This document shows, piece by piece, positions 2,430 through 31,604 of a DNA stretch of 33,672 bases; position 1 is the first letter of the stretch; every line of letters begins with the position of its first letter. The notes under the pieces are model-generated. The model was not told where the DNA came from. It made no database searches and worked only from the letters and a program-made list of their open reading frames with translations. A program made the position numbers and the translations under genes. Source of the DNA: Candidatus Omnitrophota bacterium (lineage in GTDB: Bacteria > Omnitrophota > Gorgyraeia > Zapsychrales > Zapsychraceae); contig JAGQKQ010000001.1 in the NCBI GenBank assembly GCA_020430005.1, positions 1 to 33,672 of the forward strand. Direction: 5' to 3'.

Positions 2430-2813
2430 GTGTCCAGAAAAATTCTGATTGTCGATGATGAACCGCAGATTATTGAGGTACTGACCAAGCGCCTGGAGGC
2501 TAACCAATACACGGTTGTTTCCGCTTTTGACGGTGAACAAGGTATAGAGAAGGCCATGAGCGAAAAGCCTGATCTTATTATTATTGATATTATGATGCCC
2601 AATCTTGACGGCGGCCGGGCGGTGCGTTTATTAAAATCAGATCCTTCCACTCAGAATATCCCGGTTCTTTTTTTAACGGCTGTTCTAACTGGAACAGAAG
2701 GCATGGACCATCCGGGAATTAACATTGACGGCATCACTTATGCGGCCCTGGCCAAGCCGTTTGACTCGCAAGAACTTTTGGCTAAAATCATAGAATTGAT
2801 CGGCGACGATTAA
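2430..2813 (+). CDS. receiver-only response regulator (CheY-like)
   Basis: It uses a GTG start 6 nt after a TAGGAG SD. Motifs are ILIVDDEP, the phospho-acceptor context DLIIIDIMMP and the conserved ALAKPF lysine. There is no output domain. Confidence 0.85.
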   Translation: MSRKILIVDDEPQIIEVLTKRLEANQYTVVSAFDGEQGIEKAMSEKPDLIIIDIMMPNLDGGRAVRLLKSDPSTQNIPVLFLTAVLTGTEGMDHPGINIDGITYAALAKPFDSQELLAKIIELIGDD

Positions 2814-4035: not shown

Positions 4036-4797
4036 ATGAACGATATCACATTGTTGCCTTCCGATGCAGATCCGGAAATGGTTCAGCAACTACAGGCCAA
4101 ATGGCATTTTAAAGTTTGTTCCGGTGAAGAAAAAAACACGTACGCTTTGCAGGTCGAAGAGGGGCGGTTACAGCTTATCTGCCCGCATGACCGAGGATTT
4201 AAACCGTTTTATGTGGATTTTTCTTCGGATGTTCTGAACTACCGCCGGAAATTCGGCGGCGGACGCCGTCAGTCTATTGCCAAGGCTGTTGGTCTTAAAA
4301 AGGGAGCAATGCCCCGGGTTCTGGATGCAACGGCCGGGTTCGGACGGGACGCTTTTATTTTAGCATCTTTGGGATGCCGTGTGCATATGCTGGAACGGAA
4401 TCCTGTTGTGGCAGCTTTGCTGGAAGACGGACTGAAGCGGGCCAGTTTAGATTCTGAAATGGAAACATGGATTTCCCAGCGATTATCCTTATCCGGTCAG
4501 GATATTCTTCAGGATCAAAGCGGTCTGCCGTTTTCACCGGATGTTATCTATCTGGACCCGATGTATCCTCCGAAAACAAAAGCGGCCCTGGTCAAAAAGG
4601 ATATGCAGATTTTACAAGCAATTGTCCGTGAAAAGACAGATGTTGACGATTTGTTTCAGACGGTGTTTAATATGGCACAGGATCGGATTGTGATAAAACG
4701 TCCGGATTATGCGCCGTATGTGGCAGCCAGGGACCCGGACACTGTGATTAAAACCAAGAGTCATCGATTTGATATATATCTAAGAATTAAGAGTTAA
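4036..4797 (+). CDS. rsmJ: 16S rRNA (guanine1516-N2)-methyltransferase RsmJ-like SAM methyltransferase
   Basis: YRRKFGGGRRQSIAKAVG, VLDATAGFGRDAFILASLGCRVHMLERNPVVAALLEDGL, YLDPMYP and KRPDYAP are collinear with E. coli RsmJ as I recall it. Confidence 0.85.
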   Translation: MNDITLLPSDADPEMVQQLQAKWHFKVCSGEEKNTYALQVEEGRLQLICPHDRGFKPFYVDFSSDVLNYRRKFGGGRRQSIAKAVGLKKGAMPRVLDATAGFGRDAFILASLGCRVHMLERNPVVAALLEDGLKRASLDSEMETWISQRLSLSGQDILQDQSGLPFSPDVIYLDPMYPPKTKAALVKKDMQILQAIVREKTDVDDLFQTVFNMAQDRIVIKRPDYAPYVAARDPDTVIKTKSHRFDIYLRIKS

Positions 4798-25084: not shown

Positions 25085-25372
25085 ATGACCTTTACAGATT
25101 TTCAGCAATCCTTGCAACAAGAATCCCCGCCGAGTTTTTCCGATTTATTGTCGGCGTTATGGTGGGATGCCAAAGGTCAATGGGAAAAGGCTCACGAGAT
25201 TGCGCAGGACGTTTATACGAATGACGGCTTCTGGGTTCATGCTTATCTTCATCGTAAAGAGGGAGATGAATTTAATGCGGGGTATTGGTATAATCGGGCT
25301 GGCAAATCCAAAAGCCGGCTGTCATTAGATGAGGAATGGGAAAATATTGTTAAGGCGCTATTGGAGAAATAA
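25085..25372 (+). CDS. conserved hypothetical protein (WVHAYLHRKEGD motif)
   Basis: The 95-aa version starts at the ATG at 25085, 4 nt after the mscS stop. I remember the ALWWDAKGQWEKAH...WVHAYLHRKEGD...YWY pattern as a widespread uncharacterised family. Confidence 0.55.
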   Translation: MTFTDFQQSLQQESPPSFSDLLSALWWDAKGQWEKAHEIAQDVYTNDGFWVHAYLHRKEGDEFNAGYWYNRAGKSKSRLSLDEEWENIVKALLEK

Positions 25373-25701
25373 TGGCTTATAATGAACAGTTGGCGAAACG
25401 GGCGAGGGATATTCTGAAAACTCAAAAGGGGTTTTCCGAAAAAAAGATGTTCGGCGGTTTGTGTTTTTTGTTAAATGGTAATATGTGCTGTGGTGTTGAA
25501 AAAGATAACTTTATGGTGCGTGTCGGGCCACAACAGTATGAAAAGGTTTTATCGTTAAAATACGCCCGTCCGATGGATTTTACAGGCAGGCCGTTAAAAG
25601 GTTTTGTTTATGTGGATGCACAAGGCGTTAAAACAAAGACGGCCTTACGAAAATGGGTTCAATACGGAATCGATTTTGCAGGCTCTCTTCCCGGAAAGTA
25701 G
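25372..25701 (+). CDS. TfoX N-terminal domain protein
   Basis: KKMFGGLCFLLNGNMCCGV is typical of TfoX_N. The start overlaps the previous stop codon (TAATG). Confidence 0.7.
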   Translation: MAYNEQLAKRARDILKTQKGFSEKKMFGGLCFLLNGNMCCGVEKDNFMVRVGPQQYEKVLSLKYARPMDFTGRPLKGFVYVDAQGVKTKTALRKWVQYGIDFAGSLPGK

Positions 25702-26289: not shown

Positions 26290-28215
26290 ATGAAATATGA
26301 TCCGTTCCAACAACAGGCTATCGATTACATTAATGAGGGCCACTCTGTTATTGTCTCCGCTCCGACAGGGGCCGGAAAAACGGCGATAGCCGAACATGTT
26401 ATCCAGCAGTGTCTCCAGCGCAGAGAAAAAGTTATTTATACAGCGCCTATTAAGGCCCTTTCCAATCAAAAATATCGGGAGTTTCAAAAGTACACACAGG
26501 ACAAAGTGGGTATTTTGACCGGGGATATTACCCTTAATGCCGGCGCGTCAGTGCTGGTTATGACGACAGAGATTTTCCGGAACAAAATTCTGGAAGAGCA
26601 CAGTTCTATTAAGGATTTTAGCTGGATTGTCTTTGATGAAATTCATTATCTGGACGATTGGGAACGGGGAACGGTCTGGGAAGAATCCTTAATTTTTATG
26701 CCGGATCATATGCGTTTTTTGGGATTGTCGGCCACCATTCCGAATATCGACGAAATGAAACACTGGCTGGAAAAGATTCATAAAAGGCCGGTTAAGATTG
26801 TTAAAGAAAATAACCGTCCGGTTCCATTGCATTTTTTCTATCAATGCCAAAGTCAAATCTACGATGATATTAAGCTTCTTTCCAAAAAAGGTTTTACCGT
26901 TCCCGGCAATAAATACCTGAGAGGGCGGAAAATGCCCCGGTCGATTCGTTTGAAGCCTAATCGACTGAGTCCACTGATTGAGGACTTATATCAGAAAGAA
27001 CGGATGCCCTGTATCTATTTCGCTTTCAGCCGTCGACGAACAGAAGAACTGGCCAATGAAATGACAGAGTTTAATTTTCTTAGCACAACCGAGCGCAATG
27101 AAATTCGTACCATGTATGACACTTTGTGCGAGCGGTACGATTTAAAGGGAGAGAAAACAGCGGAGGAGTTAAAACCATTACTCGACCGTGGAATTGCTTA
27201 TCATCATGCCGGAATGTTGCCAACCTTGAAAGAAGTCGTTGAACAGTTATTTACAAGTAAACTTCTTAAACTGATTTTTACGACAGAAACTTTCGCATTG
27301 GGGATTAATATGCCGGCCAAGACAGTTATCTTTGACGAACTGCGTAAGTTTTATGGGCGCTCATTCAGCAATCTGCGTACGCGTGATTTTTATCAAATGG
27401 CCGGGCGTGCCGGCCGGCGTTCTATTGATAAAGAAGGTTTTGTGTTTTGCCGGGTCAATCCTCATTATATTTCGCCGGAAGAGGTTTACAGGATTATTTA
27501 TAGCGAACCGGAGAAAGTGAGTTCTCAGTTTAACGCCTCTTATGCCACTGTTTTAAATTTATATAATCATTATGGTGAGAAATTGTATGACATTTATCCA
27601 AGGTCATTTCATTATTTTCAGAAACGCAAGTTTTTACATAAACAGGCCTTGTATTTTCTAAAGGCGAAGGTTGATATTTTAAAAGAGCTAAAATATATTC
27701 AGGACGAACAGCTTACGGAAAAAGGAATTTTTGCCAGCAAGGTTTATGGATATGAGATGATTCTGGCCGAGCTGTTTGATCAGGGCGTGCTGGAGCAATT
27801 ATCGGTGCGGCAATTGGGAACCTTGTGTTTGGCGGTCGTCTATGAGCCGAGAAAAGGGACACATAAACCCCAGCTGATGAAGGAAACCAAGAAGCTCGAA
27901 ATGATCACTGATAAAATTATCCATGATGTCAACCGGCTGGAGCGGTTTTTGAAATTTAAGGATCTCAGCAAGCGGTGCTTTTTCCATTTAACACCGGCCT
28001 TTGAGGCCTGGCTCAAGCAGGAGTCTTTCAGTCAGATTCTGGAATATATTGATGCGGATGAGGGGGAGGTTGTCCGGTATTTCCGTATGACGATTCAGGT
28101 CCTCCGTGAGATTGCGGAAACCCCTATCAGCGTAGAGTTACAGGAAAAAATCTATCAGCTGATTAAGCTGATCGACCGGGACGTTATTGACTCGGAAAAA
28201 CAGCTTTCCGTGTAG
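26290..28215 (+). CDS. SF2 DEAD/DEAH-box helicase, Ski2/HelY-like
   Basis: It has motif I SAPTGAGKT, motif Ia TAPIKALSNQK, motif II DEIH, motif III SAT, motif VI QMAGRAGRR, and a C-terminal helical DSHCT-like extension. Confidence 0.85.
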   Translation: MKYDPFQQQAIDYINEGHSVIVSAPTGAGKTAIAEHVIQQCLQRREKVIYTAPIKALSNQKYREFQKYTQDKVGILTGDITLNAGASVLVMTTEIFRNKILEEHSSIKDFSWIVFDEIHYLDDWERGTVWEESLIFMPDHMRFLGLSATIPNIDEMKHWLEKIHKRPVKIVKENNRPVPLHFFYQCQSQIYDDIKLLSKKGFTVPGNKYLRGRKMPRSIRLKPNRLSPLIEDLYQKERMPCIYFAFSRRRTEELANEMTEFNFLSTTERNEIRTMYDTLCERYDLKGEKTAEELKPLLDRGIAYHHAGMLPTLKEVVEQLFTSKLLKLIFTTETFALGINMPAKTVIFDELRKFYGRSFSNLRTRDFYQMAGRAGRRSIDKEGFVFCRVNPHYISPEEVYRIIYSEPEKVSSQFNASYATVLNLYNHYGEKLYDIYPRSFHYFQKRKFLHKQALYFLKAKVDILKELKYIQDEQLTEKGIFASKVYGYEMILAELFDQGVLEQLSVRQLGTLCLAVVYEPRKGTHKPQLMKETKKLEMITDKIIHDVNRLERFLKFKDLSKRCFFHLTPAFEAWLKQESFSQILEYIDADEGEVVRYFRMTIQVLREIAETPISVELQEKIYQLIKLIDRDVIDSEKQLSV

Positions 28216-28218
28216 GTT

Positions 28219-28247
28219 TTGCCAAATGCCAGGAGATAGGGTATACT
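28219..28247 (+). promoter_or_regulatory. near-consensus sigma70 promoter
   Basis: TTGCCA (28219-28224), 17 nt, TATACT (28242-28247). It begins 4 nt after the helicase stop codon. Confidence 0.55.
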
Positions 28248-28261
28248 TGTCTATAGAACCG

Positions 28262-28400
28262 ATAAAGGCAAACCCGCCGTAAGACGGGGACCCCGGTAAG
28301 GCCTAAAAGTCCTCCGGGTCCGGCCGGAAATATCCAGCCGGAGCAAAGCCAAGGGTCCTTAAGTGATATGGATAGCCTGGTTGCCAGTGAAATAAACAGA
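28262..28400 (+). promoter_or_regulatory. structured GC-rich leader, riboswitch-like aptamer candidate (c-di-GMP-I/GEMM-I-like motifs)
   Basis: Motifs occur in this order: AAAGGCAAACC (28264-28274), CGCC-GUAA-GACG hairpin, GGGGAC, two additional GC hairpins, GCAAAGCC (28343-28350), CCUUAAG...UAUGG (28357-28371), and GGTTGCC (28379-28385), which is complementary to GGCAA(A)CC. Confidence 0.45.
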
Positions 28401-28409
28401 CATTGCACG

Positions 28410-28445
28410 AACCTATCCAAAAACTGACGGATAGGTTTTCTTATT
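28410..28445 (+). terminator. intrinsic terminator (expression platform of the leader)
   Basis: AACCTATCC, 10 nt, GGATAGGTT, followed by TTCTTATT. It ends 6 nt before the GGAGG SD of the response regulator. Confidence 0.7.
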
Positions 28446-28462
28446 AGTGAGGAGGCAGGGGA

Positions 28463-28828
28463 ATGGCCAAAATTCTCGTTATTGATGACGATCATGAAAT
28501 ATGTAATCTCCTGGTGCAGCGGCTCAAGGCTAATAATTTTCATGTTGCCACGGCCAGTACTATTTTGGAGAGCTTTCAGCAATTAAGCCAGGAAGTGCCG
28601 GATGTGATCATTCTGGATTTTATGTTGCCGGGTATTTTAGGGACCACTTTTTCAGAAGACCTGAAGAAAGACACTCAGTATCAGGAAATTCCTATTATTT
28701 TTGTGTCAGGACAGTCTGAAGAAGAGATTAAAAAGATGGACGCAAACGTTCGTTTTGACGCCTACATAAGAAAACCTTTCGAAGCGCAGGACCTCATTCA
28801 AACCATCCATAAAGTTTTATCCAACTAA
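28463..28828 (+). CDS. receiver-only response regulator (CheY-like)
   Basis: The 121-aa ORF has ILVIDDDHE, DVIILDFMLP, FVSG and YIRKPF. There is no output domain. Confidence 0.85.
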   Translation: MAKILVIDDDHEICNLLVQRLKANNFHVATASTILESFQQLSQEVPDVIILDFMLPGILGTTFSEDLKKDTQYQEIPIIFVSGQSEEEIKKMDANVRFDAYIRKPFEAQDLIQTIHKVLSN

Positions 28829-31169: not shown

Positions 31170-31604
31170 TTAGGGTGTTGCCATATAGTGTGGACATTTT
31201 GATGATTGACAAAAAGGATTTGGAGGGTAAAGGTTTTGTATGGGTTCATCTGAGCGAAATTCCCAATAGTAGTATTTTCTCCAATCACCTACACGATGAG
31301 CCTGCGCTGTATATGTAGAAGTATTAAAACCAATATTATAATCAAAGTAAGGATCTGATATTTTGATATTGAATAAGCTGTTAATGGCGTCTATGCCATA
31401 TACAGAGCCAGCTGGATAGTCTTGATTTTTAATCTTGTATATTTCCCCTGCAGCATGAATAGTCAATAGATTAATTTTTACTTGGCGTGAGTGACTTTTT
31501 TCGATGGCGCGGCTATAGCTTGGTATAGCAAAAGCGGCAGTCACACCGACAATAATAGTGACTGTGATGAGTTCCATTAATGTAAAAGCTTTTTTATCCA
31601 TCAT
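31170..31604 (-). CDS. prepilin-type N-terminal cleavage/methylation domain protein (type IV pilin / pseudopilin-like)
   Basis: MMDKKAFTLMELITVTIIVGVTAAFAIPSY is a class III signal with Glu at +5 and a hydrophobic helix. The C-terminus has a CQSSKC cysteine pair. Confidence 0.8.
   Translation of the reverse strand: MMDKKAFTLMELITVTIIVGVTAAFAIPSYSRAIEKSHSRQVKINLLTIHAAGEIYKIKNQDYPAGSVYGIDAINSLFNIKISDPYFDYNIGFNTSTYTAQAHRVGDWRKYYYWEFRSDEPIQNLYPPNPFCQSSKCPHYMATP

Follow-up and report, generated by a model that had tools for sequence, protein, structure and literature searches.

A class I cyclic di-GMP riboswitch aptamer with a conserved two-hairpin expansion, upstream of an orphan CheY-like receiver gene in Omnitrophota

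The 33.7-kb window analysed here is the whole of a 33,672-nt stretch of DNA from a Candidatus Omnitrophota bacterium (contig JAGQKQ010000001.1 of assembly GCA_020430005.1, positions 1 to 33,672), and the element in question is the leader of a gene encoding a CheY-like, single-domain response-regulator receiver. Judged by its covariance-model match and its conserved nucleotides, this region is a genuine class I cyclic di-GMP (c-di-GMP-I, or GEMM-I) riboswitch aptamer, and a 51-nt insert within it is a conserved, covarying two-hairpin expansion. Together with its surroundings the aptamer probably belongs to a complete riboswitch unit, in which a promoter-like site, the GEMM-I aptamer, a terminator, a Shine-Dalgarno (SD) sequence and a monocistronic receiver gene make up a transcriptional OFF switch. 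Coordinates refer to the window and to the + strand unless marked otherwise, and the features, which are collected in Table 1, were re-read directly in the sequence.

A scan of the whole window with Rfam returned exactly one match at the gathering threshold, c-di-GMP-I (RF01051) at 28257-28388 (+), at 37.0 bits, where 35 is the gathering score, with model positions 1-87 of 87 aligned. Between 28150 and 28520, no Rfam family outside the GEMM clan was found at E <= 10. A preliminary description of this leader had left open whether it was a divergent aptamer for c-di-GMP or another cyclic dinucleotide, or instead an undescribed ligand-sensing leader, and had proposed a search of the full Rfam library; that search, with its end-to-end RF01051 match, favours the first possibility, and the second is not borne out, since no other family appears and all GEMM-I core signatures are present. 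The four core motifs do lie in the order that had been given for the family, namely AAAGGCAAACC, GGGAC, GCAAAGCC and GGUUGCC (consensus GGYURCC, 28379-28385). In the RF01051 alignment the first hairpin has a distal part of 70 nt, against 19 allowed for by the model, and the score is marginal because 51 nt (28292-28342) intervene between GGGAC and GCAAAGCC; in several canonical GEMM-I copies at the comparison loci these two motifs are joined directly, with no intervening nucleotides. A model of the expanded subclass (R1), the distribution of which is described below, scores the window copy at 80.1 bits (E 1.5e-22), which places it 13th of 35.

Equivalent nucleotides were assigned by aligning the window copy with the Rfam consensus and the Vc2 aptamer of Vibrio cholerae, the numbering of the latter having been checked against PMC11705072. 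The contact nucleotides G20, A47 and C92 correspond to G28267, A28345 and C28384. Binding by Vc2 requires a pair that C44 forms with G83 in the other hairpin (PMC11705072); both partners are there in the window, as C28291 and as G28375, which with A28374 forms the AG bulge of P3. The CC that includes the C92 equivalent and the bulged G at the G83 equivalent are invariant across the subclass, although both lie outside the pattern used to search for it. The closing helix, which in Vc2 includes G14, G94 and U96 (PMC11705072), is P1, and here the pair at columns 7/233 of the subclass alignment covaries between CG and UA. G28268 and C28269 form a 2-bp stem with C28344 and G28343, above which stands upper P2; its hairpin, CGCC-GUAA-GACG at 28275-28286, had already been picked out by eye and is real, with one C.A mismatch (C28277.A28284). 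In the subclass alignment upper P2 (helix 3) has four covarying pairs and 99.5% of its cells are paired, and six of the seven pairs of the second hairpin (helix 7) are changed on both sides. The pairing GGCAA(A)CC/GGTTGCC, which had been thought to close the whole domain, gives way in the family alignment to GC:GC (28268-28269/28343-28344) and AGCC:GGUU (28347-28350/28379-28382).

The first hairpin of the window copy is built of a 2-bp stem, an AAA loop, a 6-bp stem with one C.A mismatch and a GUAA loop, and a 51-nt two-hairpin insert interrupts its internal loop on the 3' strand. The GEMM description of 2007 gives 2- and 6-bp stems with a 3-nt internal loop between them, and no insert (PMC1950547). 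In that work an 11-nt-type receptor accompanies GAAA loops and is missing where the loop is GYRA, so that the GUAA tetraloop, earlier held to be atypical, belongs to one of the two known GEMM types (PMC1950547). In the subclass, the YCUAAR receptor is present in five of ten copies with a GAAA loop and in none of 19 with GUAA, and because the tetraloop/receptor rule is kept, docking of the two main hairpins is probably retained.

c-di-GMP is the expected ligand on the basis of these contact nucleotides, since the signatures of both GEMM-Ib (A20) and the GGC variant (G47) are absent. The model of the latter (c-di-GMP-I-GGC, RF03167) aligns with the window copy end to end, including P1, at 33.7 bits against a gathering threshold of 59.

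The insert enters exactly at the joint of the C44 and G45 equivalents, on the 3' strand of the first hairpin's internal loop, one step from the ligand pocket. It is made up of two hairpins, A and B, the second of which adjoins both hairpin A and GCAAAG with zero linker nucleotides. The roughly 50 additional nucleotides remarked on in the preliminary description are a conserved, covarying expansion; hairpin B stands as it was drawn there (TCCGGC/GCCGGA, 28319-28324 with 28337-28342), whereas of hairpin A only the CCCGG/CCGGG core holds, the proposed GGAC/GUCC extension taking nucleotides of GGGAC and of hairpin B.

Conservation of this layout is strict. In all 39 analysable copies, which include the window and the tandem pair at locus L036, the insert consists of exactly two hairpins, and in 31 of them there is no linker nucleotide between the hairpins or at either flank. 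Compared with dinucleotide shuffles, folding of the inserts has a median z-score of -4.9 (37 of 39 below -2). Hairpins A and B are without common sequence and range from 12 to 41 nt each. A plain MAFFT alignment of full sequences matched the anchors and not the inner strands of the two hairpins; a covariance model was seeded from stem-trimmed versions and then used solely to re-align the 35 real sequences. In the resulting alignment 96.1% of cells are in standard pairs, and the covariation score is 0.701, compared with 0.194 for shuffles (0 of 500 as high) and at most 0.127 for controls slid by 1-3 columns. All six pairs modelled in hairpin A and all six in hairpin B are changed on both sides, hairpin B has 98.5% of its cells paired, and RNAalifold finds both hairpins unaided.

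These data also bear on the idea that a mobile palindromic repeat, or an artefact of assembly, has ended up by chance in an otherwise ordinary aptamer. Although the insert is GC-rich and its two hairpins are palindrome-like, it is single in the window and unlike the inserts at other loci, its sequence is identical in five assemblies, and in 38 genomes and four metagenome contigs inserts of unrelated sequence have the same site and two-hairpin layout; we consider this explanation extremely improbable and, in effect, already refuted.

As to geometry, hairpins A and B probably stack on each other end to end, so that the strands leading in and out would come together as at a nick in a single helix, leaving the core geometry intact. 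C44 would be flipped out of its helix toward G83, which would put the C44-G45 backbone at the periphery; given a stacked pair, C44 and G45 could stay adjacent, where a single hairpin would instead hold them one helix width apart. An arrangement of this kind would account for the strict two-hairpin, zero-linker rule. It leaves unexplained two sequence preferences, that of hairpin A for C-G at levels 2-4, near the junction, and that of hairpin B for a pyrimidine-purine outer pair. Possible roles of the two hairpins may include stabilisation, tuning and partner binding.

The site of the insert raises the question of whether the expanded aptamer has changed or additional specificity, be it for another cyclic dinucleotide, for pGpG or, through hairpins A and B, for a binding protein or second ligand. 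The insert adjoins two pocket-capping base pairs and also C44, whose tertiary pair is essential (PMC11705072), and the preference of hairpin A near the junction points the same way, as does the coexistence of canonical and expanded aptamers at single loci and even in single leaders (L041, L013), which hints at non-redundant roles. However, the canonical nucleotide is there at each of the G20, A47 and C92 positions and for both partners of the C44/G83 pair, and neither the G20A signature of c-GAMP-sensing GEMM-Ib nor the A47G signature of the GGC variant is present, the RF03167 score falling short as noted above. Beyond their stems, hairpins A and B are free in sequence and length, arguing against a specific site, and the regulon is the classical c-di-GMP one. 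We therefore regard altered specificity as unlikely, with a small chance of being correct.

To place the window copy among its relatives, one genome per GTDB species was scanned with the pattern AAAGGCAAACC-N8-24-GGGAC-N30-60-GCAAAGCC, which returned 43 loci where about two would be expected by chance (our own calculation). Five of these (L011, L015, L017, L019 and L022) were set aside as chance matches with unfolded inserts in unrelated taxa. The remaining 38 come from 25 Omnitrophota metagenome-assembled genomes (MAGs), 10 Planctomycetia/Planctomycetales MAGs, and one each from Elusimicrobia, Actinomycetota and an entry labelled 'uncultured bacterium'. A further scan, of metagenomes for inserts of 5-30 nt, gave 16 matches, four of which are true inserts, all with two hairpins and down to 12+12 nt; seven are canonical aptamers with a second GCAAAGCC in P3, the other five look like chance, and no one-hairpin intermediate was found among the 16. 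At 18 loci, the Rfam gathering threshold catches eight of 19 expanded copies, at 37-45 bits, compared with 62-82 bits for canonical copies at the same loci. Since the standard model misses 11 of 19 expanded copies, annotation of the c-di-GMP regulons of Omnitrophota and Planctomycetota is probably incomplete.

Tandem leaders occur in three arrangements: canonical then expanded (L041, 2842-2941 and 2965-3124), expanded then canonical (L013, 1619-1750(-) and 1471-1556(-)) and two expanded copies (L036, 2706-2837 and 2860-2992), which suggests that the canonical and expanded forms are not redundant. Rfam assigns the canonical aptamers at L013 (1475-1552(-)), L041 (2846-2937) and L008 (851-932) to c-di-GMP-I-GGC at 63-72 bits, above gathering; all three read GCAAAG, with A and not G at the position that names the variant, and the GGC model may over-call in these lineages. 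The expanded aptamers at L006 (4371-4510(-)) and L035 (6003-6143(-)) end in AGCCGCC instead of GGYURCC, which costs the base of the second hairpin two of its four AGCC:GGYU pairs, and may form a sub-variant. A divergent second expanded copy at L039 (3988-4123 (-)) reads AAGAGCAAAUCC, GGAGAC, two hairpins and GCAAAACC in turn and scores 27 bits with R1, from which it follows that the exact-motif scan under-counts the subclass. The tandem GEMM leader at L041 has an FMN riboswitch (87.9 bits, 2521-2676 (-)) immediately upstream of it, on the opposite strand. A weak R1 match within the window, at 4289-4351, was rejected as not GEMM-like.

Turning to the rest of the proposed unit, the promoter candidate begins 4 nt past the helicase stop codon, matches the sigma-70 consensus at 10 of 12 positions and is one of just seven sites of equal quality on the + strand of the window; the predicted transcription start, at about 28254-28256, is immediately 5' of the aptamer. 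A terminator-like hairpin whose T-rich tail takes it across the helicase stop codon fits a riboswitch unit with its own promoter. From 28257 to 28388 the GC content is 56.8%, against a window mean of 41.3%, and falls in the top 0.2% of 132-nt windows. Promoter elements, GC-rich domain, GGAGG (28451-28455) and the ATG at 28463 had all been described correctly beforehand, and the SD sequence is in no predicted helix.

The intrinsic terminator had likewise been recognised from the letters: in DNA form it reads AACCTATCC, 10 nt, GGATAGGTT, then TTCTTATT (28410-28446). It has a stem of 9-10 bp (28409/28410-28437/28438) with a predicted energy of -12.4 kcal/mol and the tail UUCUUAUU, and lies 5' of the receiver open reading frame (ORF); a consensus terminator scan skipped it solely because that scan allows loops of no more than 8 nt. 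Of 39 subclass members, 24 have a comparable terminator 3' of the aptamer. The window terminator starts 22 nt 3' of the aptamer, and because the two share no nucleotides the folded aptamer cannot prevent it from forming. Sizeable complementarity to its 5' arm exists only inside P3, where the pairing of GGATAG (28370-28375) with CTATCC (28413-28418), proposed earlier, is there and extends to 7 bp. This antiterminator pairing competes with P3 and encloses a 37-nt loop. The minimum free energy (MFE) structures of transcripts truncated at 28420, 28424 or 28428 contain the antiterminator, the fold of a transcript cut ahead of the terminator 3' arm having -53.4 kcal/mol compared with -40.7 when the aptamer secondary structure alone is enforced, and that of the full-length leader (-63.0) contains the terminator, results which are consistent with the mutually exclusive folds already postulated.

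A c-di-GMP-triggered transcriptional OFF switch is the most likely mode of action on these predictions. With c-di-GMP bound, P3 would be locked by the ligand and tertiary contacts and UGGAUAG (28369-28375) sequestered, so that the terminator at 28410-28437 would form and transcription would stop ahead of the receiver gene. In the absence of ligand, UGGAUAG would pair with CUAUCCA (28413-28419), blocking the terminator and permitting expression of the receiver. It could also be supposed that the aptamer is functional as an ON switch, or acts mainly at the level of translation or through Rho, with the hairpin at 28410-28437 being ligand-independent, for instance a leaky attenuator. Many GEMM-I units are indeed ON switches in which the terminator overlaps the aptamer (PMC1950547), as appears to be so at L048, L039 and L041, and the antiterminator here is only 7 bp over a 37-nt loop, with no clear counterpart at L020 and L045. 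In the window, however, the terminator is separate from the aptamer and could not be prevented by it, the sole sizeable complement of the terminator 5' arm sits in P3, and the SD sequence is outside any predicted helix; these features make the ON or non-terminator modes an unlikely alternative, though one that keeps some weight.

A number of points weigh against the OFF-switch unit as described. The receiver protein is found on five ENA contigs and the leaders in the five other assemblies are 100% identical, so that, without variant orthologous leaders, covariation lends no separate support to the terminator/antiterminator pairing. Two further receiver-linked copies (L020 and L045) show no obvious antiterminator in simple MFE folds, and the terminators at L048, L039 and L041 overlap the aptamer in the ON-type manner, from which it follows that switching direction is not a property of the family. 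The promoter match is suggestive, a consensus match being no proof of a promoter. The identity of the ligand rests on contact nucleotides, and an insert so near the pocket could shift affinity or specificity. The RF01051 score is borderline, only 2 bits over threshold, and the window copy carries two C.A mismatches, in P1 and P2, that in P2 being the only CA cell among the 35 sequences.

The last two points are those that would be expected were the window copy a decaying or non-functional GEMM-I relic, with the receiver constitutively expressed or terminated, for both mismatches fall in helices otherwise canonical across the subclass. Against this, the subclass model places the copy mid-range, all invariant core nucleotides are intact, and five independent metagenome assemblies have the same leader, both C.A mismatches included; a low Rfam score is typical of the whole subclass (37-45 bits or below the gathering threshold) and is caused by the insert. 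Decay is accordingly improbable, and the complete OFF-switch unit remains the reading that we prefer.

The receiver gene is intact: the protein scores 80.1 bits against PF00072 (cut-off 30.2) and, as read from the sequence and alignment, has DDD at 8-10 (with the D8/D9 pocket), D52, S82 and K104. The receiver gene is monocistronic and is followed by a convergent gene for a TPR protein, and the ORF map and domain scan of the window revealed no kinase gene nearby. A search of 5.8 billion proteins found just one further homologue, 36% identical. Two other orphan single-domain receivers follow expanded aptamers, at L020 and L045; they are 22-29% identical to the window receiver and are set among unrelated housekeeping genes. 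More widely, the first genes after the 39 expanded aptamers include four encoding type IV pilin-like proteins, two encoding BTLCP/transglutaminase-like proteases, and others for a subtilase, an RlpA-like DPBB protein and a number of very large secreted proteins. Such a set is the classical GEMM regulon: Table 2 of the paper that first described GEMM, in 2007 (PMC1950547), already lists cheY, pili and secretion genes as GEMM-regulated, and the special coupling of a small molecule to a phosphorelay that had been claimed for this locus was in that respect overstated. A secreted protein of about 502 aa without a Pfam match is conserved 3' of the expanded riboswitch in several Omnitrophota genomes (L009 6093-7598, L014 1295-2800(-), L025 1574-3079 and L034 5025-6029(-)).

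Some other features of the locus deserve mention. CCUCC at 28311-28315, in hairpin A, is complementary to the SD sequence 140 nt away; it is unconserved in other members and the complementarity is probably coincidental. An ORF with a TfoX_N domain (25372-25698 (+)) has no GEMM match 5' of it in the Rfam scan of the window; tfoX is a classic GEMM-regulated gene of Vibrio (PMC1950547). About 2.3 kb downstream, a gene for a pilin-like protein with a weak ComP_DUS match (31173-31604 (-)) is without an aptamer, and pilin-like genes are the most frequent targets of the expanded riboswitch at other loci. A motif scan of the window ORFs for GGDEF, EAL, HD-GYP and PilZ gave nothing informative.

Table 1. 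Features of the riboswitch locus in window coordinates.
Feature	Position	Strand	Details
Aptamer, c-di-GMP-I (GEMM-I), expanded two-hairpin subclass	28257-28388	+	RF01051 37.0 bits; R1 80.1 bits
P1 5' strand, ACCG	28258-28261	+	pairs with CAGU 28385-28388; C28260.A28386 mismatch
Conserved core, AAAGGCAAACC	28264-28274	+	G28267 is the G20 equivalent
Upper P2 (P1b in Vc2 papers)	28273-28288	+	CC + CGCC-GUAA-GACG + GG; 6-bp stem, GNRA loop
GGGAC	28287-28291	+	invariant in alignment; C28291 is the C44 equivalent
Inserted hairpin A, 27 nt	28292-28318	+	CCCGG (28292-28296) with CCGGG (28314-28318)
Inserted hairpin B, 24 nt	28319-28342	+	UCCGGC (28319-28324) with GCCGGA (28337-28342)
GCAAAGCC	28343-28350	+	A28345 is the A47 equivalent; G28343 and C28344 are G45 and C46
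P3 (P2 in Vc2 papers)	28347-28382	+	AGCC:GGUU, AGG:CCU, AG bulge, GUCC:GGAU, 11-nt loop
Antiterminator 5' strand (proposed), UGGAUAG	28369-28375	+	in P3 3' strand, including the G83 equivalent; pairs with CUAUCCA 28413-28419, 7 bp
GCC	28383-28385	+	C28384 is the C92 equivalent; C28385 closes P1
Intrinsic terminator	28410-28446	+	AACCUAUCC, 10-nt loop, GGAUAGGUU, then UUCUUAUUA
Sigma-70-like promoter candidate	28219-28247	+	TTGCCA (28219-28224), 17 nt, TATACT (28242-28247)
Shine-Dalgarno sequence, GGAGG	28451-28455	+	7 nt 5' of the ATG at 28463
CheY-like single-domain response-regulator receiver, 121 aa	28463-28828	+	PF00072, 1.8e-22
Ski2-like helicase gene	26290-28215	+	domains DEAD, Helicase_C, DSHCT; stop codon 28213-28215
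Terminator-like hairpin at helicase gene 3' end	28193-28210	+	6-bp stem, tail TGTAGGTTTT

For the locus itself, an odd leader becomes a confident annotation, that of a c-di-GMP-I riboswitch, which probably shuts off an orphan CheY-like receiver at high c-di-GMP. The occurrence of three unrelated orphan receivers under the expanded switch suggests that c-di-GMP levels are repeatedly linked with single-domain phosphorelay proteins in these bacteria. More generally, two additional helices, inserted one step from the ligand pocket, are tolerated by a well-studied aptamer and are conserved in two little-known phyla, and the rule of two abutting hairpins, never one, poses a clean structural question on how junction aptamers accept expansions. 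It is a speculative idea, and on balance a rather unlikely one, that the two-hairpin GEMM-I is a functionally distinct riboswitch subclass of phyla related to the PVC group of Planctomycetes, Verrucomicrobia and Chlamydiae (Omnitrophota, Planctomycetota), in which hairpins A and B alter affinity, kinetics or specificity or recruit a partner; were it true, canonical and expanded aptamers in one genome or leader would read different signals or concentration ranges.

Considering known systems, the subclass is most readily compared with GEMM-I itself (RF01051, as in Vc2 of V. cholerae), with which it shares the core motifs, the three core helices and the GNRA loop on the first hairpin, the G20/A47/C92 equivalents and the C44/G83 partners, as well as the location in 5' leaders, the terminator-based expression platform and the regulon of pili, secreted proteins and cheY-type genes. 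Unlike GEMM-I, it has two extra hairpins between the C44 and G45 equivalents, 34-60 nt in genomes and down to 24 nt in metagenomes, which make a four-helix junction out of the first hairpin's internal loop; it also scores lower with Rfam than the canonical copies at the same loci, and is seen almost exclusively in MAGs of Omnitrophota and Planctomycetia. The 2007 paper noted that GEMM is common in 'Plantomycetes' (PMC1950547). No description of an insert-bearing GEMM-I was found in searches of open-access full texts, so that earlier sightings elsewhere, for instance in the supplementary alignments of 2007, are possible, and the same searches yielded no riboswitch study in Omnitrophota. The riboswitch family and a cheY-type target were thus already known, and the conserved two-hairpin expansion by the pocket is, as far as could be established, new.

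Within the GEMM clan, the c-di-GMP-I-GGC variant (RF03167) has the same overall fold, but the window copy has A28345 (GCAAAG) in place of the diagnostic G and, well under the gathering threshold, is not a member. The c-AMP-GMP riboswitch of Geobacter (GEMM-Ib) likewise uses the GEMM-I scaffold. GEMM-Ib has A at position 20, whereas the window (G28267) and all subclass members have G (AAAGGC), and GEMM-Ib is not known to carry the insert. Tandem GEMM-I arrangements, as in delta-proteobacteria and in Bc3-5 of Bacillus thuringiensis, have their like in the subclass members at L036, L041 and L013; the window, by contrast, has a single aptamer, and its extra hairpins are inside that aptamer and do not form a second one. 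Beyond GEMM, the closest parallel is with peripheral helices such as those of the lysine riboswitch five-way junction (PMC3082890), which are also extra helices, kept in position and variable in sequence, round a ligand junction; those of the expanded GEMM-I differ in that they mark a lineage-restricted subclass and always come as a linker-less pair.

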